This document shows, in pieces, positions 8,839 through 60,326 of a DNA stretch of 64,000 bases. The translations under genes and the position numbers were made by a program. Below the pieces are notes generated by a model. The model worked only from the letters and a program-made list of their open reading frames with translations, was not told the origin of the DNA and made no database searches. Each line of letters starts with the position of its first letter. The stretch's first letter is position 1. The stretch lies in NCBI RefSeq assembly GCF_030013205.1, contig NZ_CP122648.1, one strand, 5' to 3'. The DNA comes from Escherichia coli. GTDB taxonomy: Bacteria; Pseudomonadota; Gammaproteobacteria; Enterobacterales; Enterobacteriaceae.

Positions 8839-8946
8839 ATGACGCTCGCAGAACTGGGCATGGCCTTCTGGCATGATTTAGCGGCTCCGGTCATTGCTGG
8901 CATTCTTGCCAGCATGATCGTGAACTGGCTGAATAAGCGGAAGTAA
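8839..8946 (+). CDS. ldrD: Ldr family type I toxin, 35 aa (MTLAELGMAFWHDLAAPVIAGILASMIVNWLNKRK)
   Basis: Sits at the 3' end of ORF 8704..8946; product matches the 35-aa Ldr peptide family. Confidence 0.8.
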   Translation: MTLAELGMAFWHDLAAPVIAGILASMIVNWLNKRK

Positions 8947-9205
8947 CGTGTCAGACGGGCGTCAGGCTGCCGTAATGGCAAGTTGCGTCCGGATCAGGCC
9001 GCAGGGATAAAACTCTGCGGCCTTTTTCGTAAGAAAAATGCAACGGTTGCAAGCGGATAATATTCTGCGGAATGCGCAGCACAGAGTGAAGACGTGACGG
9101 ATTCCGGAACAGAAAAACAGTCGTAGAATCAGCGGCAAGCCGGAAAGGTTCCGGTGAGGCGCAATGTTGCGGGGGCTTTATCCCTGGTGGCATTGGTTGC
9201 TGGAG

Positions 9206-9273
9206 AGAGAAAACCCCCGCACGTTGCAGGTATGCACCTGACAACACCACGGGGGCCATTCTTGCATCCAAAC
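9206..9273 (-). ncRNA. rdl: Rdl-type antisense sRNA, copy 2, approximate ends
   Basis: Paralogous position in repeat unit 2; the 5' portion diverges from copy 1. Confidence 0.35.
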
Positions 9274-9321
9274 AATACAAGAATAGCCGCGAAACGTTGT
9301 CATTACAACAGAGGCGGCTAT

Positions 9322-9429
9322 ATGACGCTCGCAGAGCTGGGCATGGCCTTCTGGCATGATTTAGCGGCTCCGGTCATTGCTGGCATTCTTGCCAGCATGA
9401 TCGTGAACTGGCTGAATAAGCGGAAGTAA
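9322..9429 (+). CDS. Ldr family type I toxin, 35 aa, copy 2
   Basis: Same peptide as copy 1, in the second repeat unit. Confidence 0.8.
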   Translation: MTLAELGMAFWHDLAAPVIAGILASMIVNWLNKRK

Positions 9430-9687
9430 CGTGTCAGACGGGCGTCAGGCTGCCGTAATGGCAATTTGCGCCCGGACCAGGCCGCAGGGATAAAACTCTG
9501 CGGCCTTTTTCGTAAGAAAAATGCAACGGTTGCAAGCGGATAATATTCTGCGGAATGCGCAGCACAGAGTGAAGAAGTGATGGATTCCGGAACAGAAAAA
9601 CAGTCGTAGAATCAGCGGCAAGCCGGAAAGGTTCCGGTGAGGCGCAATGTTGCGGGGGCTTAATCCCTGGTGGCATTGGTTGCTGGA

Positions 9688-9756
9688 GAGAGAAAACCCC
9701 CGCACGTTGCAGGTATGCACCTGACAACACCACGGGGGCCATTCTTGCATCTAGAC
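9688..9756 (-). ncRNA. rdl: Rdl-type antisense sRNA, copy 3, approximate ends
   Basis: Paralogous position in repeat unit 3. Confidence 0.35.
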
Positions 9757-9804
9757 CATTCAAGAATAGCCGCGAAATGTTGTCATTACAACACAGGCGG
9801 CTAT

Positions 9805-9912
9805 ATGACGCTCGCAGAACTGGGCATGGCCTTCTGGCATGATTTAGCGGCTCCGGTCATTGCTGGCATTCTTGCCAGTATGATCATGAACTGGCTGAAC
9901 AAGCGGAAGTAA
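9805..9912 (+). CDS. Ldr family type I toxin, 35 aa, copy 3 (variant ...ASMIMNWLNKRK)
   Basis: Third repeat unit; one substitution (I to M) relative to copies 1 and 2. Confidence 0.8.
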   Translation: MTLAELGMAFWHDLAAPVIAGILASMIMNWLNKRK

Positions 9913-9998: not shown

Positions 9999-10907
9999 TT
10001 ATTGCGGGTAAGGCACCCAGTCGCCGCCGTTCAGGCGAACGTACGGTTTATCCTGGTATTGAATAACTACTGCATTTGAGTTCTCGGAGACCGGTGCTGT
10101 TTGTGGTAACCCACTGGTGAGTTTTTTCCAGTCAACATTGTCTTCGGAGAAAATCTTGCCATCAAGAACGCGAACCACCAGATCGGAGATAGCCAGGAAG
10201 CTGCTCGGTTGGTCGATGACAATCGGTGCCCCCTGATGTGGTGCCTTCATGCCGAAGAATTTCACCCCAACGGGGACGTCTGTGATAGACGGGCTAGGGA
10301 TATCACGTAGGCCAGATACCTGCATTCTGTCGCCCTTCAGCGCGCCACCGTGTTCCGGCACCACTACCACCATCACTTTACGACCCGACTTCTCCAGTTC
10401 AGTAAAGAAGGCGTCCAGCTCATCAAAGAATTTCTGTGCTCGCGCTTTGTAATCCGCTGTTTTGCTGACGCCCGGATAATGGTTGCCGTCATGCAGTGGA
10501 AGCGTGTTGTAGAACGTGGCACTACGGCTGTTTTTATCTTTTTCGGTAACGTCCAGCCAGCGGTTAAGCACGGCGGTATCGTCATAAACCGGCGAACCAT
10601 CAAAGCCCAGCAAAATAACCGGCAGATTTGTTTGATCCATCAATTCGGTCTGCATGCCGCCATTTTCGCGAACTTCTTTCAAAAAACCGCCGAACTGGCC
10701 GTTATGTCCCATCATCAGGTGCTGGGTAAAGCCCAGTTTCGACAGGTTATCAAACAGATAGCAGTCATTATTTGCCGGTTGATACAGATTAGTATGCGAA
10801 GTCTGCCCGCAGCTGGCGCGCAGTAAACGGATCGCCGCCGGAAGGTGACATTGCCGTCGAGTACTGGAGTACGGTGGCGAAAATTCCGGCTCGCCGTGGC
10901 GAAGCGA
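9999..10907 (-). pseudogene. bcsG: 5'-truncated remnant of cellulose phosphoethanolamine transferase gene (C-terminal about 240-300 codons only)
   Basis: Minus-strand frame is open from 10907 to the stop at 9999 and encodes ...YLFDNLSKLGFTQHLMMGHNGQFGG...NGGDWVPYPQ; no N-terminal TM region, promoter or RBS; abuts a bcsC fragment on the opposite strand. Confidence 0.7.
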
Positions 10908-31764: not shown

Positions 31765-31773
31765 TTAATTTAA

Positions 31774-31805
31774 TCGCCCGAACAGGAATGTTTGGGCGAT
31801 TTTCA
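31774..31805 (+). terminator. rho-independent terminator after ccp
   Basis: TCGCCCGAACA / loop / TGTTTGGGCGA followed by TTTTC. Confidence 0.7.
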
Positions 31806-31875
31806 TTACGATAATAAAGTCTGTTTTTAATATTATCATGTTAAATGTTTATATTATAAAAAGTCGTTTTTCTGC

Positions 31876-31895
31876 TTAGGATTTTGTTATTTAAA
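31876..31895 (+). promoter_or_regulatory. GAD box (GadE binding site) upstream of gadA
   Basis: TTAGGATTTTGTTATTTAAA, matching the 20-bp GAD-box consensus, about 80 bp upstream of the gadA ATG. Confidence 0.7.
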
Positions 31896-31974
31896 TTAAG
31901 CCTGTAATGCCTTGCTTCCATTGCGGATAAATCCTACTTTTTTATTGCCTTCAAATAAATTTAAGGAGTTCGAA

Positions 31975-33375
31975 ATGGACCAGAAGCTGTTAACGGATTT
32001 CCGCTCAGAACTACTCGATTCACGTTTTGGCGCAAAGGCCATTTCTACTATCGCGGAGTCAAAACGATTTCCGCTGCACGAAATGCGCGATGATGTCGCA
32101 TTCCAGATTATCAATGATGAATTATATCTTGATGGCAACGCTCGTCAGAACCTGGCCACTTTCTGCCAGACCTGGGACGACGAAAACGTCCATAAATTGA
32201 TGGATTTGTCGATCAATAAAAACTGGATCGACAAAGAAGAATATCCGCAATCTGCAGCCATCGACCTGCGTTGCGTAAACATGGTTGCCGATCTGTGGCA
32301 TGCGCCTGCGCCGAAAAATGGTCAGGCCGTTGGCACCAACACCATTGGTTCTTCCGAGGCCTGTATGCTCGGCGGGATGGCGATGAAATGGCGTTGGCGC
32401 AAGCGTATGGAAGCCGCAGGTAAGCCGACCAACAAACCAAACCTGGTGTGCGGTCCGGTACAAATCTGCTGGCATAAATTCGCCCGCTACTGGGATGTGG
32501 AGCTGCGTGAGATCCCTATGCGCCCCGGTCAGTTGTTTATGGACCCGAAACGCATGATTGAAGCCTGCGACGAAAATACCATCGGCGTGGTGCCGACTTT
32601 CGGCGTGACCTACACCGGTAACTATGAGTTCCCGCAACCGCTGCACGATGCGCTGGATAAACTCCAGGCCGACACCGGTATCGACATCGACATGCACATC
32701 GACGCTGCCAGCGGTGGCTTCCTGGCACCGTTCGTTGCCCCGGATATCGTCTGGGACTTCCGCCTGCCGCGTGTGAAATCGATCAGTGCTTCAGGCCATA
32801 AATTCGGTCTGGCTCCGCTGGGCTGCGGCTGGGTTATCTGGCGTGATGAAGAAGCGCTGCCGCAGGAACTGGTGTTCAACGTTGACTACCTCGGTGGTCA
32901 GATTGGGACTTTCGCCATCAACTTCTCCCGCCCGGCGGGTCAGGTAATTGCACAGTACTATGAATTCCTGCGCCTTGGTCGTGAAGGCTATACCAAAGTA
33001 CAGAACGCTTCCTACCAGGTTGCCGCTTATCTGGCGGATGAAATCGCCAAACTGGGGCCGTATGAGTTCATCTGTACCGGTCGCCCGGACGAAGGCATCC
33101 CGGCGGTTTGCTTCAAACTGAAAGATGGTGAAGATCCGGGATACACCCTCTACGACCTCTCTGAACGTCTGCGTCTGCGCGGCTGGCAGGTTCCGGCCTT
33201 CACTCTCGGCGGTGAAGCCACCGACATCGTGGTGATGCGCATTATGTGTCGTCGCGGCTTCGAAATGGACTTTGCTGAACTGTTGCTGGAAGACTACAAA
33301 GCCTCCCTGAAATATCTCAGCGACCACCCGAAACTGCAGGGTATTGCCCAGCAGAACAGCTTTAAACATACCTGA
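31975..33375 (+). CDS. gadA: glutamate decarboxylase alpha
   Basis: 466-aa product starting [16 protein letters not shown] within ORF 31912..33375; PLP-lysine region [10 protein letters not shown]. Confidence 0.93.
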
Positions 33376-33742: not shown

Positions 33743-34567
33743 ATGCAATCATTACATGGGAATTGTCTAATTGCGTACGCAAGACATAAATATATTCTCA
33801 CCATGGTTAATGGTGAATATCGCTATTTTAATGGCGGTGATCTGGTTTTTGCGGATGCAAGCCAAATTCAAGTGGATAAGTGTGTTGAGAATTTCGTATT
33901 AGTTTCAAGAGACACGCTTTCATTATTTCTCCCGATGCTCAAGGAGGAGGCATTAAAACTTCATGCACATAAAAAAGTTCCTTCATTACTCGTTCATCAC
34001 TGTACCAGAGATATTCCTGTTTTTCAGGAGGTTGCGCAACTATCGCAGAATAAGAATCTTCGCTATGCAGAAATGCTACGTAAAAGGGCATTAATCTTTG
34101 CGTTGTTATCTGTTTTTCTTGAGGATACGCAGTTTATACCGTTACTTCTGAACGTGTTGCAACCGAATATGCGAACACGAGTTTGTACGGTCATCAATAA
34201 TAATATCGCCCATGAGTGGACATTAGCCCGAATCGCTAGCGAATTGTTGATGAGTCCAAGCCTGTTAAAGAAAAAATTGCGCGAAGAAGGTACGTCATAT
34301 TCACAGTTGCTTACTGAGTGTAGGATGCAGCGTGCTTTACAACTTATTGTTATATATGGGGTTTCAATTAAGAGAGTTGCAGTGTCCTGTGGATATCACA
34401 GCGTGTCGTATTTCATTTACGTCTTTCGAAATTATTATGGGATGACGCCCACAGAGTATCAGGAGCGATCGGCGCAGGGATTGTCGAACCGTGACTCGGC
34501 GGCAAGTATTGTTGCGCAAGGGAATTTTTACGGCACTGACTGTTCTGCGGAAGGAATAAGATTATAG
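33743..34567 (+). CDS. gadX: AraC-family acid-resistance regulator
   Basis: 274 aa; C-terminal AraC HTH; conserved position after gadA. Confidence 0.92.
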   Translation: MQSLHGNCLIAYARHKYILTMVNGEYRYFNGGDLVFADASQIQVDKCVENFVLVSRDTLSLFLPMLKEEALKLHAHKKVPSLLVHHCTRDIPVFQEVAQLSQNKNLRYAEMLRKRALIFALLSVFLEDTQFIPLLLNVLQPNMRTRVCTVINNNIAHEWTLARIASELLMSPSLLKKKLREEGTSYSQLLTECRMQRALQLIVIYGVSIKRVAVSCGYHSVSYFIYVFRNYYGMTPTEYQERSAQGLSNRDSAASIVAQGNFYGTDCSAEGIRL

Positions 34568-34583
34568 AGTTTTACTCTGACAT

Positions 34584-34689
34584 AAAAAAAACCCGGCATA
34601 GGGGACCGGGAAGAGGATAGTCTGCCGTCTCCAGACTAATAAACCGTTATAACACTCCCTGTTGGCACGGGAAACTTTGTGCTCTCAGT
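34584..34689 (-). ncRNA. gadY: GadY small RNA, antisense to the gadX 3' end
   Basis: Minus-strand sequence ACTGAGAGCACAAAGTTTCCCGTGCCAACAGGGAG...CCCGGTCCCCTATGCCGGGTTTTTTTT matches my recollection of GadY and ends in a hairpin plus U-run. Confidence 0.75.
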
Positions 34690-34935: not shown

Positions 34936-35664
34936 ATGACTCATGTCTGCTCGGTGATCCTCGTTCGTCGTTCATTCGATATTTATCATGAACAGCAAAA
35001 AATATCGTTGCACAACGAGAGTATCCTGTTACTGGATAAAAATTTGGCAGACGATTTTGCGTTTTGTTCACCGGATACGCGACGACTGGATATCGATGAG
35101 CTGACAGTTTGCCATTACTTACAAAATATTCGTCAGATACCACGCAATTTAGGGTTACATAGCAAAGACCGTCTGTTAATTAACCAGTCACCCCCCATGC
35201 CGCTGGTGACGGCGATTTTTGATAGTTTCAATGACTCCGGGGTAAATTCACCGATACTGAGCAAAATGCTCTATCTTTCCTGTTTATCGATGTTTTCTCA
35301 TAAGAAAGAACTGATCCCCTTACTTTTCAATAGTATCAGTACTGTTTCAGGAAAAGTTGAACGCCTTATTAGCTTTGATATCGCCAAACGTTGGTATCTG
35401 CGCGATATTGCGGAAAGAATGTATACCAGCGAGAGTCTAATCAAAAAAAAGTTGCAGGATGAAAATACCTGTTTCAGTAAAATATTACTCGCCTCCAGGA
35501 TGTCGATGGCCAGACGATTACTCGAGTTACGTCAAATTCCTCTGCATACTATTGCGGAAAAATGTGGCTATAGCAGTACATCGTACTTTATAAACACATT
35601 TCGACAATATTATGGTGTAACGCCACATCAGTTTGCGCAACATTCGCCAGGTACCTTTTCCTGA
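34936..35664 (+). CDS. gadW: AraC-family acid-resistance regulator
   Basis: 242 aa; AraC HTH C-terminus. Confidence 0.92.
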   Translation: MTHVCSVILVRRSFDIYHEQQKISLHNESILLLDKNLADDFAFCSPDTRRLDIDELTVCHYLQNIRQIPRNLGLHSKDRLLINQSPPMPLVTAIFDSFNDSGVNSPILSKMLYLSCLSMFSHKKELIPLLFNSISTVSGKVERLISFDIAKRWYLRDIAERMYTSESLIKKKLQDENTCFSKILLASRMSMARRLLELRQIPLHTIAEKCGYSSTSYFINTFRQYYGVTPHQFAQHSPGTFS

Positions 35665-40660: not shown

Positions 40661-41188
40661 CTAAAAATAAGATGTGATACCCAGGGTGACGATGTCGCTC
40701 ATACGTCTTAGTTTCAGCTTGTACATAATGTTGAATTTCTGAATCTTTAATGTTTGTTGCGAAATATTGAGCGTCGACGTGATATTGCTTTCATTTTTAT
40801 TTTTCAGAATCAGTTGCATAATTTTGAACTGATTATGTGAAAAACATAATTGTGAATTCTTATGGGGCAAGTGTTTACCATAAGTAATCTCAAGAAGATT
40901 TTTGATACTTTCTTTGCGGCTGACAAAATAAATAGGCGCTTTAGCTTTTAGTTTACTGATGTGATAAGGTGCCAAAACAATAATTCTCTCGGCATCTAAT
41001 TTCTCCAGAAATTTAATCGCTTCTTCATCAAGGATATGATTGTGATAGGTATCAATGATAACCTTGAAGGGTTTATTGCCTACTTTTTTGATCTCTGACA
41101 GGGAATTGATTTTTATCATTTCGTGATTATCTTTCAACTGCCAAAAGCCCTGTAAAAGAAAAGAATCTTTCGTCATGAGAAAAATCAT
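40661..41188 (-). CDS. gadE: LuxR-family acid-resistance activator
   Basis: ORF 40661..41266 trimmed to the ATG at 41188 (MIFLMTKDSF..., 175 aa); AT-rich. Confidence 0.88.
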   Translation of the reverse strand: MIFLMTKDSFLLQGFWQLKDNHEMIKINSLSEIKKVGNKPFKVIIDTYHNHILDEEAIKFLEKLDAERIIVLAPYHISKLKAKAPIYFVSRKESIKNLLEITYGKHLPHKNSQLCFSHNQFKIMQLILKNKNESNITSTLNISQQTLKIQKFNIMYKLKLRRMSDIVTLGITSYF

Positions 41189-42559: not shown

Positions 42560-42813
42560 AGAACCACCCTATAAAATTAAGAAGAAAATCCCCTGCTATC
42601 AATCTATGCCAAAAACGCGTCTAAGAATGCAGTCGATTTAATAAAAATTTCCTAATTACAGTATCTGATGCATCTGTAACTCATTGTATTGAAATAAAAA
42701 TATCTGATTTTGATATTTTCCATCAACATGACATATACAGAAAACCAGGTTATAACCTCAGTGTCGAAATTGATTCGTGACGGCTCTTTCACTTTATAGT
42801 TGAGGATATTACG

Positions 42814-44350: not shown

Positions 44351-45121
44351 TTAATGATCGAGGACGATCAGTGGTGAATGGTTGGCAGGATCTTTAAGTA
44401 CGGTAATATCCGCGCCGTAGAGCATTGTCAGCGCCTGCTGTGTCAATACGTCCTGCGGTTTACCATTTGCGATAACCTTTCCTTTTTGCATTAATACAAT
44501 ACGGTCTGCATAACGCGCGGCAAGATTTAGATCGTGCAATACGCAGCAAACATTGAACTGCCGTTCGTGAACTAACTGGCGTAATAAACGGAACAAGTGC
44601 TGCTGATGGTGAATATCCAGCGCCGAAGTTGGTTCATCAAGAAATAACCATTTCGGTGAGGGAGTAGGTTCCCAGAGTTGCACCAGCAGGCGCGCTAATT
44701 GTACGCGCTGTTGTTCACCACCGGATAATTGCCGATAGTCGCGGTTTGCTAACGCCTGACAGTCACATAACGCCATTATTTGTGCTGTTTCATTATCCTG
44801 ATTACCAGTACGATGCGGATGCCGACCCATCTGGATAACTTCTTGTACGCTGAATGGAAACGCCATGTGGCTATTTTGACGCATCACGGCCCGGTGTTTC
44901 GCCAGTTCAGTAATCGACCATTCATTTAATGGCTTATTAAACAACCGACATTCGCCGCTATCAGGTTGAAGATAGCCGGTTAACTGGCGAAGCAGCGTAG
45001 ATTTTCCCGCACCATTAGGGCCGAGAATGGCAACAATTTCCCCACCGGGAAAAGTCAGCGAGACATTGTCAGTCAGACGCCGCCCCTGAAGGCTATAAAC
45101 CAGATTCTGGGCGCTGATCAT
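44351..45121 (-). CDS. chuV: haem ABC transporter ATP-binding protein
   Basis: 256 aa from the internal ATG ([11 protein letters not shown]...); Walker [10 protein letters not shown]; signature LSGGEQQR; 4-nt overlap with the upstream permease gene. Confidence 0.85.
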
Positions 45122-46110
45122 GTGATCCTCCGGTTGCGCAGAATCAACCACATAAAATAAGGACCGCCAAGCAGGCTGGTTAATAATCCCACGGGCATTT
45201 CTGCTGGCTGTACCAGCGTGCGGGCAAGCGTGTCTGCCATCAGCAATAAACAGGCTCCGGCGAGGGCGGAGCAAGGGATTAGCCAGCGGTGATTTGCCCC
45301 GGTAGTCATACGAATCAGATGCGGGATCACCAGGCCAATAAAGCCGATAATGCCGCTTACCGATACGGCGGCACCAACGAGCAGTGAGCTCACTAACAGT
45401 AATTGCTGGCGTTTACGCTTAACGTTCACGCCGAGGTAGTGGGCTTCTTCATCACCGAGCTGCAGTAAATTCAGCGTTCCGGCGAGACAAGTTGTTGCGA
45501 TAATGGCCGGTAGGATGAATGAACTGGCAACCAATAACGTCGGCCATTGCGCCTTTCCAAGATTGCCCATCATCCACAATGTGAGTTGTCGTAGCTGCTG
45601 CTCATCGCCGATATAGCTCAGGATGCCGATCGCTGCGCCGCACAGGGCATTGATGGCGATACCGGCGAGTAATAATTGCATCATGCTGCCATCGCGATGG
45701 CGCTGCGTGATGAGAAAAATGATGGTGCAGACCACTAAACTTCCGGCAATGGCAAACACCATTTGCTCATAGAGCACCAGCACCACTGGGAAGGAGAAGG
45801 GCAGCACAATAGCAACGCCAACCATTAATGCAGAACCGCTACTGACGCCGAGTAATCCAGGGTCAGCCATTGGGTTGCGAAAAAGCCCCTGCATAATTAC
45901 CCCGGCGGTTGCCAACGCTGCACCTACCAGCACCGCCAGCAAAACCCGTGGTAGACGAATATTGAGCCAGATATCGCGGTATTCCTCATCAAAAAGGGCA
46001 TCAAAACTGATCTTTAACGCTCCCTGACTGGCACCGAACAGCACCAGGGCAAGCAATAATAGTGATAGCCCCATAAAGACCCTGGCGGATGAAAATGAAT
46101 CCTTGAGCAC
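45118..46110 (-). CDS. chuU: haem ABC transporter permease (FecCD family)
   Basis: 330-aa polytopic ORF, translationally coupled to chuV. Confidence 0.85.
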
Positions 46111-46160
46111 GCAAAACTCCGTTATGACGTTGCGGCGCGGAGAGTCTGCGCCGCATGGGA

Positions 46161-46784
46161 TTACGCCGGTTTCAGGTCAGGTTCAATCAGACTGTAGATC
46201 TGCTTGTTGAGTGCTGGCGCGTTTGCCAGTTCATGAATGTGTGCAGCGACATCGGCACGGTGAACAAAACCATGACACTCCTGATTTTGTATCCGTTGTG
46301 CTTTGCCCGTTGCCGCCCCATCAAGCAGACCGCCAGGGCGGAGAATGGCGTAATCAAGCTGGCTGGTTTGCAACCAGCTTTCCGCCAGCGTTTTTTCCCG
46401 TACCGCCTGACCAAACGCAGCCTTTGCCCGCTCCGATAAAAACGGCCAGCTATCGCCGCATCCCAAAGAGGTCACCAGAATCATGCGACTGATGCCGGCC
46501 TTTTCGGCCTCATCAATCACTGTTCTGTGCGCCAGATAATCCTGAGCTCCTCCCATTGTTGAGATGATAAGCGCATCCGGGCCAGCTGCGCGGCAAGCAG
46601 CCGCAACTACGCTGGCATCACAGGCGTCGCCTGTAAAAACCTGTACGCCTTGTTGCGCCAGTTTCGTGGCGGCATCGGCATGACGAACGACAGCAACGAC
46701 CGGACGTTGTTCCGCCAGCGCCAGTTCAAGCGTTCTGGCACCCACACCTTTTCCGCCTGCGCCAAAGAGTAGCCACGGCGTCAT
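46161..46784 (-). CDS. chuY: NAD(P)-binding Rossmann-fold protein of the haem-utilisation operon (anaerobilin reductase-like)
   Basis: 207 aa with N-terminal GAGGKGVG dinucleotide-binding motif; 1-nt overlap with chuX. Confidence 0.75.
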   Translation of the reverse strand: MTPWLLFGAGGKGVGARTLELALAEQRPVVAVVRHADAATKLAQQGVQVFTGDACDASVVAAACRAAGPDALIISTMGGAQDYLAHRTVIDEAEKAGISRMILVTSLGCGDSWPFLSERAKAAFGQAVREKTLAESWLQTSQLDYAILRPGGLLDGAATGKAQRIQNQECHGFVHRADVAAHIHELANAPALNKQIYSLIEPDLKPA

Positions 46785-47278
46785 CAGGCGTGTTCCTTTA
46801 ACGATGCCGCCAGAGCATGGAAAGCGTTGACCTGTTCGCTCAGGAGCTGACGATGGTCATCCCTGCCGAGGAAGATTTTCAGCATGGCGCTGCCTTCCTT
46901 ATTGAAAAAGAGAATAGAGGCGGTGTCCATGCCCATAAATTTACGTTCGATCAAGGCAATATGCGTGCAGTTTTCTGCTTTGATATGCCCGGACATGCCG
47001 TGCTTTCCGCGTAGGTTGAAATAGCCGTGGCGGTGGAAACCCGAAGGCAGTTCGCCGCTAAATTCGAGGATTACATCGGCAGTATGTACTAACGTGGTGA
47101 CGTTGCCCCATTCGCAGACGGTATCCCAGACAGTATCGAATTTATCGCCTGACACTATGGTAGAGGAGGGCAGATTTTTCACTACTTCCAGCAGTGTGGT
47201 GTTGTATTGTTCGGCTACCACCTCCAGCGTACCGTCCGGCTCCGTTTTCAAAAATTCTTGTAACGAGACATGGCTCAT
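46784..47278 (-). CDS. chuX: small cytoplasmic haem-binding protein
   Basis: 164-aa ORF between chuW and chuY in the operon. Confidence 0.75.
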   Translation of the reverse strand: MSHVSLQEFLKTEPDGTLEVVAEQYNTTLLEVVKNLPSSTIVSGDKFDTVWDTVCEWGNVTTLVHTADVILEFSGELPSGFHRHGYFNLRGKHGMSGHIKAENCTHIALIERKFMGMDTASILFFNKEGSAMLKIFLGRDDHRQLLSEQVNAFHALAASLKEHA

Positions 47279-47290
47279 AAATCACTCCTG

Positions 47291-48628
47291 TTATGGTTTT
47301 TCACGCACAATCGCTGGCGCATTAAGTACCTGAATTAGTTCATTAAGAGACTGCAAAATATTGCTTGCCCAGAAACGACCTTCATTAGTCAGCCGCAGGC
47401 AAGTTGAAGCATCGCGACTTAAGCCTTTTTGGTGCCATTGAGCCAGTAACGGCGCGAGTTTTTCGGCATGTGGCGTAAGTTCATCCAGCGGTACACGCGC
47501 TGTTTCAACACCTGACTGCAAGGTATGACGCCATTGCGCATCACGTTCGGCGTTACGCATGATCATCATCAGCGGTTTTTTGCCTGCCGCGACGGATTCA
47601 TGCCAGGTCTGAAGATTGCGTTCGTTCATCCAGGAGTAACCATTAATCGAACCGCCGGCTCCGGAACCAAAGGCCAGACAATCGGCACCTTGTTTAATCA
47701 GCAGGTTATAGAGATTGCGTTCGCGTGTGGTACGGCCCCAGTGGCTGTTACTGATGCAGCGCCAACCGGCTTCGTCCATGAAGTCACACCCTTGCAGATA
47801 AAGATCGCGACGTTCTGCCGGAGAGGGCACGGTAGTACGCCCATTTTCCACGGCTTTGCCCAGCGGTGTATTGGGCAGGACATTGAGCGCATAGAGATCG
47901 ACGCCGTCGAGACCGATATCGCGAGCAATAGCCAGATCTTCTCCCCAGGTTTGCGCATCCTGACCCGGCAGGCCAAACAGCAGGTCACAGACCACCGCTG
48001 CACGGTCGCGTTTGACCAGGCTTTCCATAAACGCAATGGCGGTTGGGCCATCCGAGGTGCGGGCCATTTTCTTGCGGATTTTGCTGTTAAACGACTGAAT
48101 ACCAATTGAGAAGCGGTTTGCTCCTGCATCAAGGCAAGCATCGATTCGCTCAGCGTCAAAATTCAGTACCCGGCCTTCGATAGTGATTTCACAATCAGGG
48201 GTCAGTGGCAGCTTTTCTCGTAATGTATTGATAATTCTGGCTAAATCGTGTGCAGAAAGCGCGGAAGGCGTGCCGCCACCGAAATAGACCGCGTGGATGG
48301 GGGCAGACTGATGCAATACGCTGTCCGCTTCCATTTCTATTTCACGAATCAGGGCGTCGGTATAATGAGCACACGCATCTTCATTAAAACGGTTCTGATA
48401 AAAACCACAAAACGTGCAGTGTGTCGCACAAAAAGGAATGTGTAGATAAACCAGTCGCTTACGTGGTGATACCGTTTGATTGATCATCTCTTGCCAGGTC
48501 TGTGCCAGTTGCTCTTTGGCAACCGGAATGGCTCCACGAAACGGCATCATGGCGCGCCTGTCTTTAAATGGCTGATCACCGTCTAAAGCAAAATGTGGCG
48601 TGAGATCCAGGGTGTTATTTGCGTTCAT
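47291..48628 (-). CDS. chuW: radical-SAM, HemN-like anaerobic haem-degrading enzyme
   Basis: 445 aa; radical-SAM cysteine motif CATHCTFC near the N-terminus. Confidence 0.8.
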   Translation of the reverse strand: MNANNTLDLTPHFALDGDQPFKDRRAMMPFRGAIPVAKEQLAQTWQEMINQTVSPRKRLVYLHIPFCATHCTFCGFYQNRFNEDACAHYTDALIREIEMEADSVLHQSAPIHAVYFGGGTPSALSAHDLARIINTLREKLPLTPDCEITIEGRVLNFDAERIDACLDAGANRFSIGIQSFNSKIRKKMARTSDGPTAIAFMESLVKRDRAAVVCDLLFGLPGQDAQTWGEDLAIARDIGLDGVDLYALNVLPNTPLGKAVENGRTTVPSPAERRDLYLQGCDFMDEAGWRCISNSHWGRTTRERNLYNLLIKQGADCLAFGSGAGGSINGYSWMNERNLQTWHESVAAGKKPLMMIMRNAERDAQWRHTLQSGVETARVPLDELTPHAEKLAPLLAQWHQKGLSRDASTCLRLTNEGRFWASNILQSLNELIQVLNAPAIVREKP

Positions 48629-48647
48629 TCGTCTGATTTAAATCCAT

Positions 48648-49562
48648 TTATTGCGGCCAAAGCTGCTGGTGTAAAGACTCAACGACATCAGCAATACGCG
48701 GACCCATTCCCAGAATCAGGTTTTGATCAACGGTGATAATGCGCTGGTTTTTCCATGCGGCAGTGTGGGTAATTCCGGCAATAGAACGTAGCCGATTAAT
48801 ATCGCCATCGACCATTTGTGAGGTTACGACAATCACTTCTGGATTGGCCGCAATCAGTGATTCTGCACTGTAGCTTTTGTACTGCTGGTGGGTTGCGACG
48901 TTTTCTGCTCCGGCAAGCGAAAGAATGGCGTCCGCGACGCTGCCTTTACCGGCAACTTGTGGCGCACTTCCGCCTGCGGAGAGAATAAACATGGCTTTAA
49001 CCGGGGCTTTTTTGGCCGCCACGTTTTGCTGTACTCGCTCCAGGCGTTGGTTGATCTGTGTCACCAGCGCCTCGCCTTGTTCAGGAACCTGTAGCGTTTT
49101 TGCCAGTTGGCGAATGTTGGCGTACATCTGCTCAAGGGTGGCAGGCACACGCGGCAGGGTAACGACGTTGACTTTCTGCGCCCGTAGTTGGTCGAGCACA
49201 ATTTGCGGTCCAGCATCCTGCCAGGTAATTACGCTATCCGGGCGAAGTGACAAAATGCCTTCGCTGCTGAGTTGTTTCCAGTAGCCAATATGCGGCAGTT
49301 TGGCGGTTTCTGGTGGATAAGATGTCGTTTCATCGACACCAACCACGCGTTCGCCAGCGCCCATCGCGTAGATTAGCTCCGTCAGCGATCCTCCTGCGAC
49401 CACGATACGTTCGGCAGCCGTTACGCTAAAAGCCCAGCTAAGAGCCAGTACTGCCGTAAACAATTTTTTTCGTTTTACCGCGGTCTTCGCGGCAGAGGCC
49501 ACGGCTGAAATACATAACGTTAGTGGGGAAAAAAGAAACGGCCTGGTGATGATCCTTGGCAT
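48648..49562 (-). CDS. chuT: periplasmic haem-binding protein of the ABC system
   Basis: ORF 48648..49640; start placed at the ATG at 49562 (304 aa) because a Fur-box-like sequence at 49587-49606 would otherwise lie inside the coding region; start uncertain. Confidence 0.75.
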   Translation of the reverse strand: MPRIITRPFLFSPLTLCISAVASAAKTAVKRKKLFTAVLALSWAFSVTAAERIVVAGGSLTELIYAMGAGERVVGVDETTSYPPETAKLPHIGYWKQLSSEGILSLRPDSVITWQDAGPQIVLDQLRAQKVNVVTLPRVPATLEQMYANIRQLAKTLQVPEQGEALVTQINQRLERVQQNVAAKKAPVKAMFILSAGGSAPQVAGKGSVADAILSLAGAENVATHQQYKSYSAESLIAANPEVIVVTSQMVDGDINRLRSIAGITHTAAWKNQRIITVDQNLILGMGPRIADVVESLHQQLWPQ

Positions 49563-49586
49563 AATATGAGAACTCTTATCAAATTG

Positions 49587-49606
49587 AGAATGATCATGAT
49601 TATCAT
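49587..49606. promoter_or_regulatory. Fur box upstream of chuT (chuTWXYUV operon)
   Basis: GAATGATCATGATTATCATT resembles the Fur consensus GATAATGATAATCATTATC. Confidence 0.6.
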
Positions 49607-49935
49607 TTGGGTTATATATGAAATACAACCGTCGATTCAATACGTAAGGCGTTACAAGCGTATTTATTTTTGATTTTTATCAAGATGCTTCGTCAGCTAA
49701 CGTTCTTGTTACCGACTAAATTTCAGCGCGGGAAAAAGCTGAGAACCCAGAGATATCAAGGCTTGCAGAGCAAAGCGAAGAGAAAATTATCACTGTTAAC
49801 GACAAAGTTTAGTGATGAGGTCATGGGGGAATAACCATAAAAACAAAGTGGTTTCCAGGGCGCAGGATAAGTTTCATAACCCCCTGTTTATTGTGTTAAT
49901 GGCGGTTAAAAAAAGCTTGATCATAAAAAATTGAT

Positions 49936-49954
49936 CGATAATAATTCTCATTAT
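49936..49954. promoter_or_regulatory. Fur box in the chuT–chuA divergent region (candidate chuA promoter operator)
   Basis: GATAATAATTCTCATTATC, about 290 bp upstream of the chuA ATG. Confidence 0.6.
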
Positions 49955-50244
49955 CACGTTTGCGCTTAACAAAACACGACCATATGGATAACAAAACCAT
50001 AGCATTTGCAAGGGATAACGCACAGCGCTCTTCACTCCTGATGGGGCATATCGTTTTGCCTGACAAAGAGGGCGTGCTTTTGCGTATTTGCCGAGATACC
50101 AGGCAATTTCATGGGATATAAACGCCTGTAAACTCACCCGGCGAATATTATCGCTCTGAATTTTAAATAAATTTATTTTTCGCCAGCCACCCCGGTATTA
50201 ACCCAGGCAGCCAGCATTTTTTATTTTCCTCATGGAGAATCGCT

Positions 50245-52227
50245 ATGTCACGTCCGCAATTTACCTCGTTGCGTTTGAGTTTGTTGGCTTTGGCTGTTTC
50301 TGCCACCTTGCCAACGTTTGCTTTTGCTACTGAAACCATGACCGTTACGGCAACGGGGAATGCCCGTAGTTCCTTCGAAGCGCCTATGATGGTCAGCGTC
50401 ATCGACACTTCCGCTCCTGAAAATCAAACGGCTACTTCAGCCACCGATCTGCTGCGTCATGTTCCTGGAATTACTCTTGATGGTACCGGACGAACCAACG
50501 GTCAGGATGTAAATATGCGTGGCTATGATCATCGCGGCGTGCTGGTTCTTGTCGATGGTGTTCGCCAGGGAACGGATACCGGACACCTGAATGGTACTTT
50601 TCTTGATCCGGCGCTGATCAAGCGTGTTGAGATTGTTCGCGGACCTTCAGCATTACTGTATGGCAGTGGCGCGCTGGGTGGAGTGATCTCCTACGATACG
50701 GTCGATGCAAAAGATTTATTGCAGGAAGGACAAAGTAGTGGTTTTCGTGTCTTTGGTACTGGCGGCACGGGGGACCATAGCCTGGGATTAGGCGCGAGCG
50801 CGTTTGGGCGAACTGAAAATCTGGATGGTATTGTGGCCTGGTCCAGTCGCGATCGGGGTGATTTACGCCAGAGCAATGGTGAAACCGCGCCGAATGACGA
50901 GTCCATTAATAACATGCTGGCGAAAGGGACCTGGCAAATTGATTCAGCCCAGTCTCTGAGCGGTTTAGTGCGTTACTACAACAACGACGCGCGTGAACCA
51001 AAAAATCCGCAGACCGTTGAAGCTTCTGATAGCAGCAACCCGATGGTTGATCGTTCTACAATTCAACGCGATGCGCAGCTTTCTTATAAACTCGCCCCGC
51101 AGGGCAACGACTGGTTAAATGCAGATGCAAAAATTTACTGGTCGGAAGTCCGTATTAATGCGCAAAACACGGGGAGTTCCGGCGAGTATCGTGAACAGAT
51201 AACAAAAGGAGCAAGGCTGGAGAACCGTTCCACTCTATTTGCCGACAGTTTCGCTTCTCACTTACTGACATATGGCGGTGAGTATTATCGTCAGGAACAA
51301 CATCCGGGCGGCGCGACGACGGGCTTCCCGCAAGCAAAAATCGATTTTAGCTCTGGCTGGCTACAGGATGAGATCACCTTACGCGATCTGCCGATTACCC
51401 TGCTTGGCGGAACCCGCTATGACAGTTATCGCGGTAGCAGCGACGGCTACAAAGATGTTGATGCTGACAAATGGTCATCTCGTGCGGGGATGACTATCAA
51501 CCCGACCAACTGGCTGATGTTATTTGGCTCATATGCCCAGGCATTCCGCGCCCCGACGATGGGCGAAATGTATAACGATTCTAAGCACTTCTCGATTGGT
51601 CGCTTCTATACCAACTATTGGGTGCCAAACCCGAACTTACGTCCGGAAACTAACGAAACTCAGGAGTACGGTTTTGGGCTGCGTTTTGATGACCTGATGT
51701 TGTCCAATGATGCCCTGGAATTTAAAGCCAGCTACTTTGATACCAAAGCGAAGGATTACATCTCCACGACCGTCGATTTCGCGGCGGCGACGACTATGTC
51801 GTATAACGTCCCGAACGCCAAAATCTGGGGCTGGGATGTGATGACGAAATATACCACTGATCTGTTTAGCCTTGATGTGGCCTATAACCGAACCCGCGGC
51901 AAAGACACCGATACCGGCGAATATATCTCCAGTATTAACCCGGATACCGTTACCAGTACCCTGAATATTCCGATCGCTCATAGTGGCTTCTCTGTTGGTT
52001 GGGTCGGTACGTTTGCCGATCGCTCAACACATATCAGCAGCAGCTACAGCAAACAACCTGGCTATGGCGTGAATGATTTCTACGTCAGTTATCAAGGACA
52101 ACAGGCGCTCAAAGGCATGACCACTACTTTGGTGTTGGGTAACGCTTTCGACAAAGAGTACTGGTCGCCACAAGGCATCCCACAGGATGGTCGTAATGGA
52201 AAAATTTTCGTGAGTTATCAATGGTAA
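50245..52227 (+). CDS. chuA: TonB-dependent outer-membrane haem/haemoglobin receptor
   Basis: 660 aa; signal peptide; TonB-dependent receptor architecture; C-terminal aromatic residue (...SYQW). Confidence 0.9.
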   Translation: MSRPQFTSLRLSLLALAVSATLPTFAFATETMTVTATGNARSSFEAPMMVSVIDTSAPENQTATSATDLLRHVPGITLDGTGRTNGQDVNMRGYDHRGVLVLVDGVRQGTDTGHLNGTFLDPALIKRVEIVRGPSALLYGSGALGGVISYDTVDAKDLLQEGQSSGFRVFGTGGTGDHSLGLGASAFGRTENLDGIVAWSSRDRGDLRQSNGETAPNDESINNMLAKGTWQIDSAQSLSGLVRYYNNDAREPKNPQTVEASDSSNPMVDRSTIQRDAQLSYKLAPQGNDWLNADAKIYWSEVRINAQNTGSSGEYREQITKGARLENRSTLFADSFASHLLTYGGEYYRQEQHPGGATTGFPQAKIDFSSGWLQDEITLRDLPITLLGGTRYDSYRGSSDGYKDVDADKWSSRAGMTINPTNWLMLFGSYAQAFRAPTMGEMYNDSKHFSIGRFYTNYWVPNPNLRPETNETQEYGFGLRFDDLMLSNDALEFKASYFDTKAKDYISTTVDFAAATTMSYNVPNAKIWGWDVMTKYTTDLFSLDVAYNRTRGKDTDTGEYISSINPDTVTSTLNIPIAHSGFSVGWVGTFADRSTHISSSYSKQPGYGVNDFYVSYQGQQALKGMTTTLVLGNAFDKEYWSPQGIPQDGRNGKIFVSYQW

Positions 52228-52275
52228 TCATCTGCCCCGATATTTCGGGGCATTTATCTGGAAGGAAGAGAGACA

Positions 52276-53304
52276 ATGAACCACTACACACGCTGGCTTG
52301 AGTTAAAAGAACAAAATCCCGGAAAGTACGCGCGTGACATCGCAGGTTTAATGAATATTAGCGAAGCAGAACTGGCATTTGCGCGCGTCACGCACGATGC
52401 GTGGCGGATGTGCGGCGATATCCGTGACATTCTGGCGGCGCTCGAAAGTGTTGGCGAGACCAAATGTATTTGTCGTAATGAATATGCAGTCCATGAGCAA
52501 GTTGGTGCGTTCACAAACCAGCATTTGAACGGACATGCCGGATTGATCCTCAATCCGCGCGCGCTGGATTTGCGTCTGTTTCTCAATCAATGGGCCAGTG
52601 TTTTTCACATTAAAGAAAATACGACTCGTGGCGAACGCCAGAGTATTCAGTTCTTTGATCATCAGGGCGATGCATTACTAAAAGTTTATGCCACCGACAA
52701 TACCGATATGGCGGCATGGAGTGAGCTTCTGGCACGGTTTATCACCGATGAGAATACGTCGCTTGAGTTAAAAGCCGTTGATGCGCCAGTTGTTCAAACG
52801 CGAGCCGATGCCAGTGTGGTCGAGCAAGAGTGGCGGGCGATGACCGACGTTCATCAGTTTTTTACGTTGCTCAAGCGCCACAACCTGACGCGCCAACAGG
52901 CGTTCAATCTGGTGGCAGATGATTTGGCCTGCAAAGTATCCAACAGTGCGTTGGCGCAAATTCTTGAATCTGCACAGCAGGATGGCAATGAAATCATGGT
53001 GTTTGTTGGCAACCGTGGCTGCGTACAGATTTTCACCGGTGTGGTAGAAAAAGTGGTGCCAATGAAAGGTTGGCTGAATATTTTTAACCCGACGTTTACT
53101 CTTCATCTATTAGAAGAGAGCATTGCTGAAACCTGGGTAACCCGTAAACCTGCTAGTGACGGTTATGTGACCAGTCTGGAATTGTTTGCCCATGATGGTA
53201 CGCAGATAGCGCAACTTTATGGTCAACGTACAGAAGGCGAACAGGAGCAAGCGCAATGGCGTAAGCAAATTGCTTCGCTGATACCGGAAGGCGTTACTGC
53301 ATAA
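52276..53304 (+). CDS. chuS: cytoplasmic haem-degrading / haem-trafficking protein
   Basis: 342-aa ORF immediately downstream of chuA. Confidence 0.85.
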   Translation: MNHYTRWLELKEQNPGKYARDIAGLMNISEAELAFARVTHDAWRMCGDIRDILAALESVGETKCICRNEYAVHEQVGAFTNQHLNGHAGLILNPRALDLRLFLNQWASVFHIKENTTRGERQSIQFFDHQGDALLKVYATDNTDMAAWSELLARFITDENTSLELKAVDAPVVQTRADASVVEQEWRAMTDVHQFFTLLKRHNLTRQQAFNLVADDLACKVSNSALAQILESAQQDGNEIMVFVGNRGCVQIFTGVVEKVVPMKGWLNIFNPTFTLHLLEESIAETWVTRKPASDGYVTSLELFAHDGTQIAQLYGQRTEGEQEQAQWRKQIASLIPEGVTA

Positions 53305-54858: not shown

Positions 54859-56082
54859 TTATGGGATTATATTCTGGTAATGATTTGATAAGCGAATTCT
54901 TTTGCCAGATGGTGTTTCTATTTCCACCCCATAATTTATAGTTTTTTCATCAGGTAGCGATCTCTTTAAATAAGGTGCGTATGACATTTTTTTTGGGTTA
55001 AGCGTCTCGTATTGAAATACTTCGAATTGATATTCAGACATTTCTGCCCATGTTTGAATTTTATTGTATCGGGGTAGTGTCGTAAAGGCTTTAACTTGCT
55101 TATAACATTGTTTTTTGAATTCTTGCTGATATTTTAATATGTCATTGTATGAAATATTGGTTATCCTGGCCTCTAAGAATTTAATTATTGTCGAAGCAAT
55201 TTCCGCTTTTGCTCGTAAAAAGTTGTCATTAATGGTTAATAATGTTGAAAATAAACCTTCGATTTGTTTGTCAAGATATTGTTCGTCTTTATATAATTTT
55301 GGGGTAGGGTGTTCTTTATGTGAAAAAATAGTGTCACCTAAATTTGCGTCAGTGAAATTTATATTAAGTAGATCTTCGAAATAAAACCTTGACAAGGTTA
55401 GAACGAACCCGGACAGGTTCTGTCCTGTCATATTGAAATCAATAAAGTTGGTTCCGGCAAAGACTTTCATCCTGTTTTTATTTTCACTGTGTTCAATATA
55501 TAACTTCGTCATTTTTTGATACAGGCTTTGAATATCTTTTATATTAGTCGGTAAGTCAGCTCGTTGTTCAGCAATAAAATTAGTATCTGAAAATATGGTT
55601 TGGACACTGAATGTTATGGGTATTCCCTCTTCTACGCTAATTTTAGTTATGATTGCCTTGTCGGGTTTAGGATTAGCGACAACAATGATTCGACATTCAG
55701 CACTTTTGTTCTTTTCGTATCTAATGTTATTAATTTGATTAAGTAGTCCCTGTGCCTGCCGCGTAAGTGGTGTCGAACTTATCGATTCAATGTTAGTAAT
55801 AAGACTTACAAGTTGAGCCACAACTTTTGAGTAGTCTGCATTTGTATATGTGGTGTTCGTGTGGCACGCATTAATTTGTTGGAGTTGTTGTTGCGCTAAA
55901 TCAAATTGTTCAGCGTTATATCCTTCTTCAGACAATGAAAAATTAATGGGTTGCTGTTCTTCCTGATTATCACAAGGCCACATCGGTGTGTCTGGTGTTT
56001 TAACATTGTCGGTATCTGTTGTGCGGTTATAAATATCGCCGTGATATGTATTTATCATACCTGGGGTAAAGTCAATTGACAT
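54859..56082 (-). CDS. yhiS: hypothetical protein, YhiS-like, apparently intact
   Basis: 407-aa uninterrupted ORF in an AT-rich segment; assigned from position between slp and the ars genes; function unknown. Confidence 0.6.
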
Positions 56083-58190: not shown

Positions 58191-58616
58191 TTATTTCAAG
58201 CGTTTACCCGCTTCATCAACCACTTTCTCGCCATCTTCCTTGGTGAACGCGCCTTGTTGCGCATCTGGCAGAATTTCCAGCACGACTTCTGAAGGGCGGC
58301 ACAGGCGAGTTCCCAACGGCGTCACCACAATCGGGCGATTAATCAGAATCGGGTGCTGAAGCATAAAGTCGATTAACCGATCGTCAGTAAATTTATCTTC
58401 TGCAAGGCCCAGTTCCTCATACGGCTCGACGTTTTTACGCAGCAGCGCGCGTACGGAAATCCCCATATCGGCAATGAGTTTGACCAGTTCATCACGCGTC
58501 GGTGGGGTTTCCAGATAATAGACGATGGTCGGTTCTGTACCGCTGTTGCGGATCATCTCCAGCGTATTACGCGACGTACCGCAGGCCGGGTTGTGATAAA
58601 TGGTAATGTTGCTCAT
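58191..58616 (-). CDS. arsC: arsenate reductase (glutaredoxin-coupled)
   Basis: 141 aa; catalytic cysteine context YHNPACGTSRN. Confidence 0.93.
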   Translation of the reverse strand: MSNITIYHNPACGTSRNTLEMIRNSGTEPTIVYYLETPPTRDELVKLIADMGISVRALLRKNVEPYEELGLAEDKFTDDRLIDFMLQHPILINRPIVVTPLGTRLCRPSEVVLEILPDAQQGAFTKEDGEKVVDEAGKRLK

Positions 58617-58628
58617 ATCAATATCTCA

Positions 58629-59918
58629 TTACAAAGTGAAAGAGAGACGTAGCGCCAGCGCAGCCAGCGTCACAAACAGCACCGGCAGGGTCATGATAAT
58701 CCCTGTACGGAAGTAATATCCCCAGCTGATAGTTATATTCTTCTGCGAAAGTACGTGCAGCCATAGTAGCGTTGCCAGGCTACCAATCGGGGTAATTTTC
58801 GGCCCCAAATCGCAGCCAATTACGTTGGCATAAACCATCGCTTCTTTGATAACGCCAGATGCCGTGCTGCCATCAATGGACAACGCGCCAACCAGTACCG
58901 TCGGCATATTGTTCATAATAGAAGAGAGGAAGGCGGTGAGGAATCCGGTGCCGAGCGTCGCGGCCCACAGGCCATTATCCGCCAGCACGTTGAGTACGCC
59001 AGAAAGATATTCCGTTAGTCCGGCATTGCGCAGGCCATAAACCACCAGATACATGCCGAGCGAGAAGATGACAATCTGCCAGGGCGCACCGCGCAGGACT
59101 TTACCCGTATTAATTGCATGACCGCGTTTAGCGACGGCAAATAATATCAGCGCGCCCACTGCCGCAATGGCGCTGACCGGAATGCCGAGCGGTTCCAGGA
59201 CGAAAAATCCCACCAGCAGAAACAGTAAAACAACCCAGCCAGTTTTGAAGGTGGCAGGATCTTTAATCGCTTCTGCGGGAGATTTCAGCAGCGCCATATC
59301 GTAGTTCTGCGGAATATCTTTGCGGAAATAGAGATGCAACATCACCAGCGTGGCAACAATCGCGGCGATATCCACCGGCACCATCACCGAGGCATATTCG
59401 CGAAAGCCGAGGCCAAAGAAATCTGCGGAAACGATATTCACCAGGTTGGAGACAATAAGCGGCAGGCTGGCGGTATCGGCAATGAACCCGGCCGCCATCA
59501 CGAACGCAAGCGTCGTGCCTTTACTGAACCCTAAAGCCAGCAGCATGGCGATGACAATCGGTGTCAAAATAAGCGCCGCGCCATCATTGGCAAACAGAGC
59601 TGCAACGGCAGCACCGAGCAGGACAATCCAGGTAAACAGCAAGCGACCGCGTCCATTGCCCCAGCGTGAGACGTGCAGCGCCGCCCATTCAAAAAAGCCG
59701 GACTCATCCAGCAGCAGGCTGATGATAATGACGGCAATAAACGCCGCCGTCGCGTTCCAGACGATATTCCACACCACCGGAATATCACCCGGATGTACCA
59801 CGCCCGTAACTAACGCCAGTACTGCGCCAAGCGTTGCACTCCAGCCGATGCCTAAACCTTTCGGCTGCCAGATAACCAATACGATGGTCAGGACAAAGAT
59901 AGCGCCTGCCAGTAACAT
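58629..59918 (-). CDS. arsB: arsenite/antimonite efflux pump
   Basis: 429-aa product from the internal ATG ([10 protein letters not shown]...) within ORF 58629..59939. Confidence 0.9.
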
Positions 59919-59972
59919 AATGCCTCCCGGAAAAAACACATGTGAAAATCCATATGTGTTTAGATAAATTTT

Positions 59973-60326
59973 TTAACTACAAGTGTTCTTACAGTCTACG
60001 GAACAATTTTGTCTGGCCAGGTTGCGGACAATCACCTGAACCTTTTCCTGTTCGCATCGCCAGGCCTGCTCAATAATTTTCGCGGCCCATGATGGAATAT
60101 GCGGTGATAAGCGGTAATGAACCCACTTACCCTGCTTGCGATCCAGCAACAAACCGCTTTCACGAAGAAGCGCCAGATGGCGGGAGATCTTGGGCTGCGA
60201 CTGGTCGAGAGCAGTGCAGAGATCACAGACGCATAACTCTCCCAGCTCGCTGAGCAGTAAAACGATGCCCAGACGGGTTTCATCAGCAAGAATTTTGAAC
60301 AGTTGGATGGGTAACAGAAATGACAT
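59973..60326 (-). CDS. arsR: arsenic-responsive repressor
   Basis: 117 aa; metal-binding site ELCVCDLC and HTH. Confidence 0.92.
   Translation of the reverse strand: MSFLLPIQLFKILADETRLGIVLLLSELGELCVCDLCTALDQSQPKISRHLALLRESGLLLDRKQGKWVHYRLSPHIPSWAAKIIEQAWRCEQEKVQVIVRNLARQNCSVDCKNTCS

Follow-up and report, generated by a model that had tools for sequence, protein, structure and literature searches.

The GAD box is a cis element needed for the expression of gadA and gadBC, and GadE acts as its activator (cited within PMC2887963 and PMC4918353). The locus studied here raises the question of whether a 20-bp element in front of a gadA gene of Escherichia coli represents this box and whether the regulatory wiring of acid resistance that goes with it is conserved in the strain. 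We analyzed a contiguous stretch of 64 kb, which is called the window throughout (positions are counted from its first letter and + denotes the strand given). A preliminary description had placed the box at positions 31876-31895, about 80 bp upstream of gadA. When the window was searched for the pattern, the exact 20-mer was recovered at this position on the + strand and the distance between its last base and the ATG of gadA (31975) was 79 bp. Coordinates, sequence and approximate distance had thus been given correctly. The box and its gene are the following:

31876-31895, + strand: GAD box TTAGGATTTTGTTATTTAAA, exact match; RcsB/GadE heterodimer site according to the K-12 literature
31975-33375, + strand: gadA coding sequence (glutamate decarboxylase A, 466 amino acids plus stop), assigned by TIGR01788, K-12 identity and synteny

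On the + strand, the 20-mer is embedded in the sequence context ...ttctgcTTAGGATTTTGTTATTTAAAttaagcc... and it agrees with the published GAD box/GadE site TTAGGAttTTgTTATTTAAa (PMC4918353) at 20/20 positions. The conserved G residues of its TTAGGA half are present, and a pattern search over both strands of the window identified it as the sole match to TTAGGATTTTGTTATTTAAA at up to three mismatches. In the work of Castanie-Cornet and Foster from 2001, the published box sequence is reportedly the one common to the gadA and gadBC promoters of K-12. A complete match at the orthologous gadA locus therefore reflects ordinary conservation and should not be read as an independent motif match.

The 20-mer consists of 80% A+T and lies within an AT-rich intergenic region, which would be in line with a chance match. 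When we screened 100,044 bacterial and archaeal species representatives (one genome each) for the exact 20-mer, we obtained 11 matches, and three of them were located on Lentisphaeria and Bacteroidales contigs (L014, L015, L017) that did not show a glutamate decarboxylase neighbor. These copies from unrelated metagenome-assembled genomes indicate that the 20-mer can arise by chance in 298 billion bases. A uniform base composition would predict about 0.5 copies in a data set of this size, and for an AT-rich word the expectation is higher. We judged the three copies to be chance occurrences; the G+C fraction was about 0.3 in two of the three contigs. The other eight matches belonged to Escherichia (E. 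coli-type species, E. albertii, E. whittamii and Escherichia sp. E1V33) and each was followed by a gad coding sequence at a distance of 79-80 bp. Among the species representatives, no genus other than Escherichia showed the exact 20-mer upstream of a gad gene. For the copy in the window, a chance origin is ruled out, since 100 dinucleotide-preserving shuffles of the window gave no match to the box even at three mismatches and the locus is base-for-base orthologous to the K-12 gadA promoter.

The same orthology argues against the possibility that the gene was mis-assigned and that the promoter is that of gadB. The gene is flanked by ccp and gadX, gadC is not found downstream, and its product shares 464/466 residues with K-12 GadA vs 459/466 with K-12 GadB, so that gadB is ruled out as well. 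The product matched TIGR01788, the glutamate decarboxylase equivalog, with an E-value of 2.4e-208 (692 bits). Translation confirmed the reading frame with the start codon at 31975-31977. An in-frame TTG is present upstream at 31912 in the open reading frame list; the ATG at 31975 corresponds to the K-12 start.

The gene order in this part of the window is treF (-), ccp/yhjA (+), gadA, gadX, gadY (antisense), gadW, mdtF, mdtE, gadE, hdeD, hdeA, hdeB and yhiD, and this acid fitness island is presented in the reverse of its K-12 orientation. Several porcine ETEC chromosomes matched 25 kb of the window at 100% identity. Compared with ETEC4067 (NZ_CP122685.1, 197659-261658; pig feces, Belgium), only two differences were observed in 64 kb, which are located at positions 8925 and 56140. 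From these comparisons, the window can be assigned to a porcine-ETEC-type E. coli chromosome.

Outside the gad genes, the window differs from K-12 at several loci. In the bcs locus for cellulose synthesis (9999-13882), about 10.3 kb are deleted. At the junction (10826-10841), bcsG (-) retains its 3' half and is joined to a bcsC (+) from which the first ~417 bp are missing, and a 16-bp stretch is common to both sides. The genes bcsZ, bcsB, bcsA, bcsQ, bcsR, bcsE and bcsF are absent compared with K-12, and a strain with this deletion should be cellulose-negative. Ldr type I toxin genes occur in three tandem copies at 8839-9912 (8839, 9322 and 9805; period of about 483 bp), where K-12 carries a single ldrD/rdlD unit. 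Between yhiD and dctR/slp, the acid fitness island also contains a chu/shu cluster for heme uptake and degradation (44351-53304; chuA, chuS, chuT/shuT, hutW, hutX, chuY, shuU and an ATPase), which is missing in K-12. According to the ETEC4067 annotation, a frameshifted hypothetical gene is located on the - strand at 54966-56082 between slp and a permease/ars cluster, and arsR, arsB and arsC are found at 58191-60326.

Between ccp and gadA, the following elements were assigned:

31772-31801, + strand: terminator-like hairpin of ccp followed by a T run, between ccp and the gadA promoter
31817-31836, + strand: GadX/GadW-like box AAGTCTGTTTTTAATATTAT, 5' of the GAD box, from motif similarity; identical in K-12
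31896-31911, + strand: 16-bp spacer between GAD box and -35, gadA-type TTAAGCCTGTAATGCC, according to the 16-bp rule of PMC2887963
31912-31917, + strand: putative -35 hexamer TTGCTT of the gadA promoter, from the 16-bp rule (PMC2887963) and K-12 identity
31925-31934, + strand: RcsB box core GGATAAATCC abutting the -10, with approximate edges; repression by activated RcsB according to the literature
31935-31940, + strand: putative -10 hexamer TACTTT, 17 bp after the -35; identical in K-12 gadA and gadB
31948, + strand: inferred +1, uncertain by a few bases; K-12 mapping carried over via sequence identity
31963-31968, + strand: Shine-Dalgarno sequence AAGGAG of gadA

The gadA promoter was missed by a strict sigma-70 consensus scan, whose calls were confined to AT-rich look-alikes upstream. 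Given this outcome, the promoter elements were mapped via the published spacing (PMC2887963). The missed call fits a weak, activator-dependent promoter and adds no independent support for it. In K-12, the GAD box is situated 16 bp upstream of the -35 and is centered 63 bp upstream of +1 (PMC2887963). In the window, TTGCTT follows the box after 16 bp, and the box center (31885.5) is 62.5 bp away from the putative start, which matches the published value of about 63 bp. In K-12, a companion RcsB box lies immediately 5' of the -10, and the gadB copy of this box is conserved except that the G at the left end is replaced by a C (PMC2887963). Here, we found GGATAAATCC directly 5' of TACTTT, identical to K-12 gadA, and alignment of the gadA sequence with that of gadB (CGATAAATCC) revealed exactly the published G/C difference.

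Further upstream, AAGTCTGTTTTTAATATTAT deviates by three mismatches from the published GadX/GadW motif AtGtcTGATtTttatattat (PMC4918353), for which two matches were obtained in the window vs 0.01 expected. From this motif similarity, the sequence may be considered a candidate GadX/GadW box. Folding of the sequence after ccp gave a 13-bp stem (-20.3 kcal/mol, z = -5.85) that starts 8 bp past the ccp stop codon. An intrinsic-terminator scan made no call after ccp, though the folded hairpin is strong, and together with the T residues that follow it the hairpin probably terminates ccp.

The preliminary description had suggested an alignment with the gadA and gadB promoters of K-12. From this alignment it can be seen that the 20-mer is identical in both promoters and that its distance to the ATG is 79 bp in each of them. 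From the GAD box to the ATG of gadA, every base of the window equals that of K-12, including the 16 bp to the -35, the -35 itself, the RcsB box, the -10, the 5' untranslated region and the Shine-Dalgarno sequence, and the flanking genes are also the same. Within the ccp-gadA intergenic region, three single bases differ from K-12; they fall within the ccp terminator or next to it, at distances of 71-103 bp upstream of the box. The promoter as such does not differ from that of K-12; what differs is the host, which is a chu-positive porcine-ETEC-type strain. The K-12 gadBC box belongs to another locus (pqqL-gadB-gadC), which is outside the window. It shares with gadA the 20-mer, its distance to the ATG, the -35 and the -10, and the RcsB box except for the single G/C exchange. 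In contrast, gadA and gadB are unrelated upstream of the box and differ in the 16-bp spacer (TTAAGCCTGTAATGCC vs CACGAGTCCTTTGCAC), and similarity returns at the -35. Because the flanks have diverged, it is notable that the box agrees at 20/20 positions in the two paralogous promoters. Such an island of identity is what would be expected for a functional site.

Gene conversion between the two paralogs, and not per-base selection for protein binding, could also be the main cause of this identity. The coding regions of gadA and gadB are about 98% identical, and conversion tracts do cross the gadA promoter: in E. coli EC26 (L005, 2397-2625), the sequence from the GAD box to the RcsB box is of the gadB type, which is a gadB-to-gadA gene-conversion tract. 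However, in K-12 and in the window the spacer and the upstream sequences of gadA and gadB differ while the box is identical, unlike an uninterrupted conversion tract. Moreover, a G-to-C change of a conserved G in the box abolishes both formation of the protein-DNA complex and the stimulation of a gadA-lacZ fusion by GadE (PMC2887963). We consider gene conversion as the main reason for the identity extremely unlikely. It concerns the maintenance of the sequence and is compatible with our main explanation, according to which the element is the orthologous GAD box of gadA.

We next turn to the distribution of this GAD box among complete E. coli genomes. The 214-bp ccp-gadA intergenic region was found in 5412 of the 5426 genomes, where it was always chromosomal and adjoined gadA. 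A 40-bp sequence centered on the box was detected in 5400 of them (about 99.5%), and 5118 of these copies were 100% identical. In E. coli KR2009 (L004, 2498-2662), the gadA promoter has lost 64 bp by deletion, and with them the GAD box and the -35.

The element had been described beforehand as a site for GadE binding. The sequence is indeed that of the known GadE site, but in published in vitro experiments GadE by itself does not bind to it. MBP-GadE alone protected neither box, and both binding and activation required the RcsB/GadE heterodimer (PMC2887963). RcsB and GadE together protect the region from -50 to -76 of the gadA promoter, and the activation of K-12 gadA via the box has been worked out with DNase I footprinting, electrophoretic mobility shift assays, point mutants and lacZ fusions (PMC2887963). 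The TTAGGA left half of the GAD box resembles an RcsB half-site (PMC2887963). Heterodimer sites of RcsB also include the RcsA/RcsB box; RcsA is not the partner at the GAD box. The description therefore requires a refinement: the box is a composite RcsB/GadE site and not a GadE-only site. At high concentrations, RcsB alone binds to the RcsB box near the -10 and contributes to repression (PMC2887963). ChIP-exo data indicated that gadA and gadB are both activated by GadE and GadX.

If the K-12 mechanism applies to the gadA gene of the window, GadE would build up in stationary phase and under acid conditions and would pair with RcsB at its basal activity. Binding of the heterodimer to the GAD box centered near -63 would then activate gadA transcription, and the GadA formed would decarboxylate glutamate, a reaction in which a proton is consumed. 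Highly activated RcsB might occupy the RcsB box abutting the -10 and repress the promoter, and GadX/GadW sites further upstream together with H-NS may provide additional control. For binding, activation and the transcription start at this gadA gene, we infer from the literature that they should follow the K-12 pattern.

Several of the regulators are encoded in the window, which also contains a further GAD-box-like site:

33743-34567, + strand: gadX (AraC-family co-activator), NF007432 GadX equivalog with 598 bits (cut-off 500), 262/274 residues identical to K-12
34584-34689, - strand: gadY small RNA, 106/106 nucleotides identical to K-12 gadY
34936-35664, + strand: gadW (AraC-family regulator), 237/242 residues identical to K-12 GadW; gadW in the ETEC4067 annotation
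40661-41188, - strand: gadE (LuxR-family activator and heterodimer partner), 175/175 residues identical to K-12 GadE; gadE in the ETEC4067 annotation
42641-42655, - strand: putative second GAD-box-like site TTAGGAAATTTTTAT, degenerate, between hdeA and hdeD (hdeD strand), from a motif match

In addition to GadE, the proteins MdtF, HdeA, HdeB and TreF were 100% identical to their K-12 counterparts, and arrS (70/70) and gadF (91/91) were also identical. GadX was the most diverged island protein (95.6% identity to K-12, 12 substitutions). The search pattern TTARGAWWWWNWWAT gave two matches in the window vs 0.07 expected, and TTAGGAAATTTTTAT was the only one besides the GAD box. It fits the start (TTARGAWWWW) of the GadE motif determined by ChIP-exo, the full form of which is TTARGAWWWWAAATA (PMC4918353). 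In the hdeD, hdeAB and gadE promoters, the GadE sites of the acid fitness island are degenerate, whereas the boxes of gadA and gadB represent the full 20-bp form. The divergent hdeA-hdeD intergenic region also contains a GadX/GadW-like box, ATATCTGATTTTGATATTTT, at 42700-42719 (+), close to TTAGGAAATTTTTAT.

At the sequence level, the trans factors encoded in the window (GadE, GadX, GadW and gadY) are intact. The earlier proposal that the regulatory wiring appears to be conserved is upheld to this extent: the segment from the box to the ATG equals that of K-12, GadE and gadY are identical to their K-12 counterparts, and GadX and GadW are of full length, so that a conserved wiring may be deduced from the conserved sequence. 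Since the box is an RcsB/GadE site, this wiring also depends on RcsB, which is encoded outside the window.

The cis element might therefore be intact but idle, if a trans partner outside the window were defective (RcsB, or RpoS or the EvgAS-YdeO cascade for gadE). The genes rcsB and gadBC and the upstream regulators of gadE (evgAS, ydeO, rpoS) are located outside the window, and natural variants of rpoS and of other regulatory genes are common in E. coli. A box without RcsB remains unbound (PMC2887963). On the other hand, all visible components are intact and most of them are identical to K-12, and sequenced fecal ETEC isolates are nearly the same over the window, with two differences in 64 kb. 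RcsB is also encoded by a core gene of E. coli. On balance, an idle site appears highly improbable. We assign a similarly small probability to a subtle rewiring of acid-resistance control in porcine ETEC that acts in trans and leaves the cis element unchanged, either via the diverged GadX or via regulators outside the window; recurrent gene conversion of the promoter would be a related scenario. If such a rewiring were true, a perfectly conserved GAD box would work under a different input logic.

Taken together, the element at 31876-31895 is very probably the orthologous and already characterized GAD box of the E. coli gadA promoter within the acid fitness island, and no feature of the sequence speaks against this assignment. 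Its identification is correct but ordinary, since the element is already known and the same box occurs in nearly every E. coli genome. Element, position and mechanism were described in K-12 between 2001 and 2010, and the presence of the box in this strain is the expected default and not a discovery, with little importance beyond annotation. Glutamate-dependent acid resistance helps E. coli to survive the passage through the stomach. Judged from its DNA, the strain carries an intact cis-regulatory module for this system together with intact gadE, gadX, gadW and gadY.
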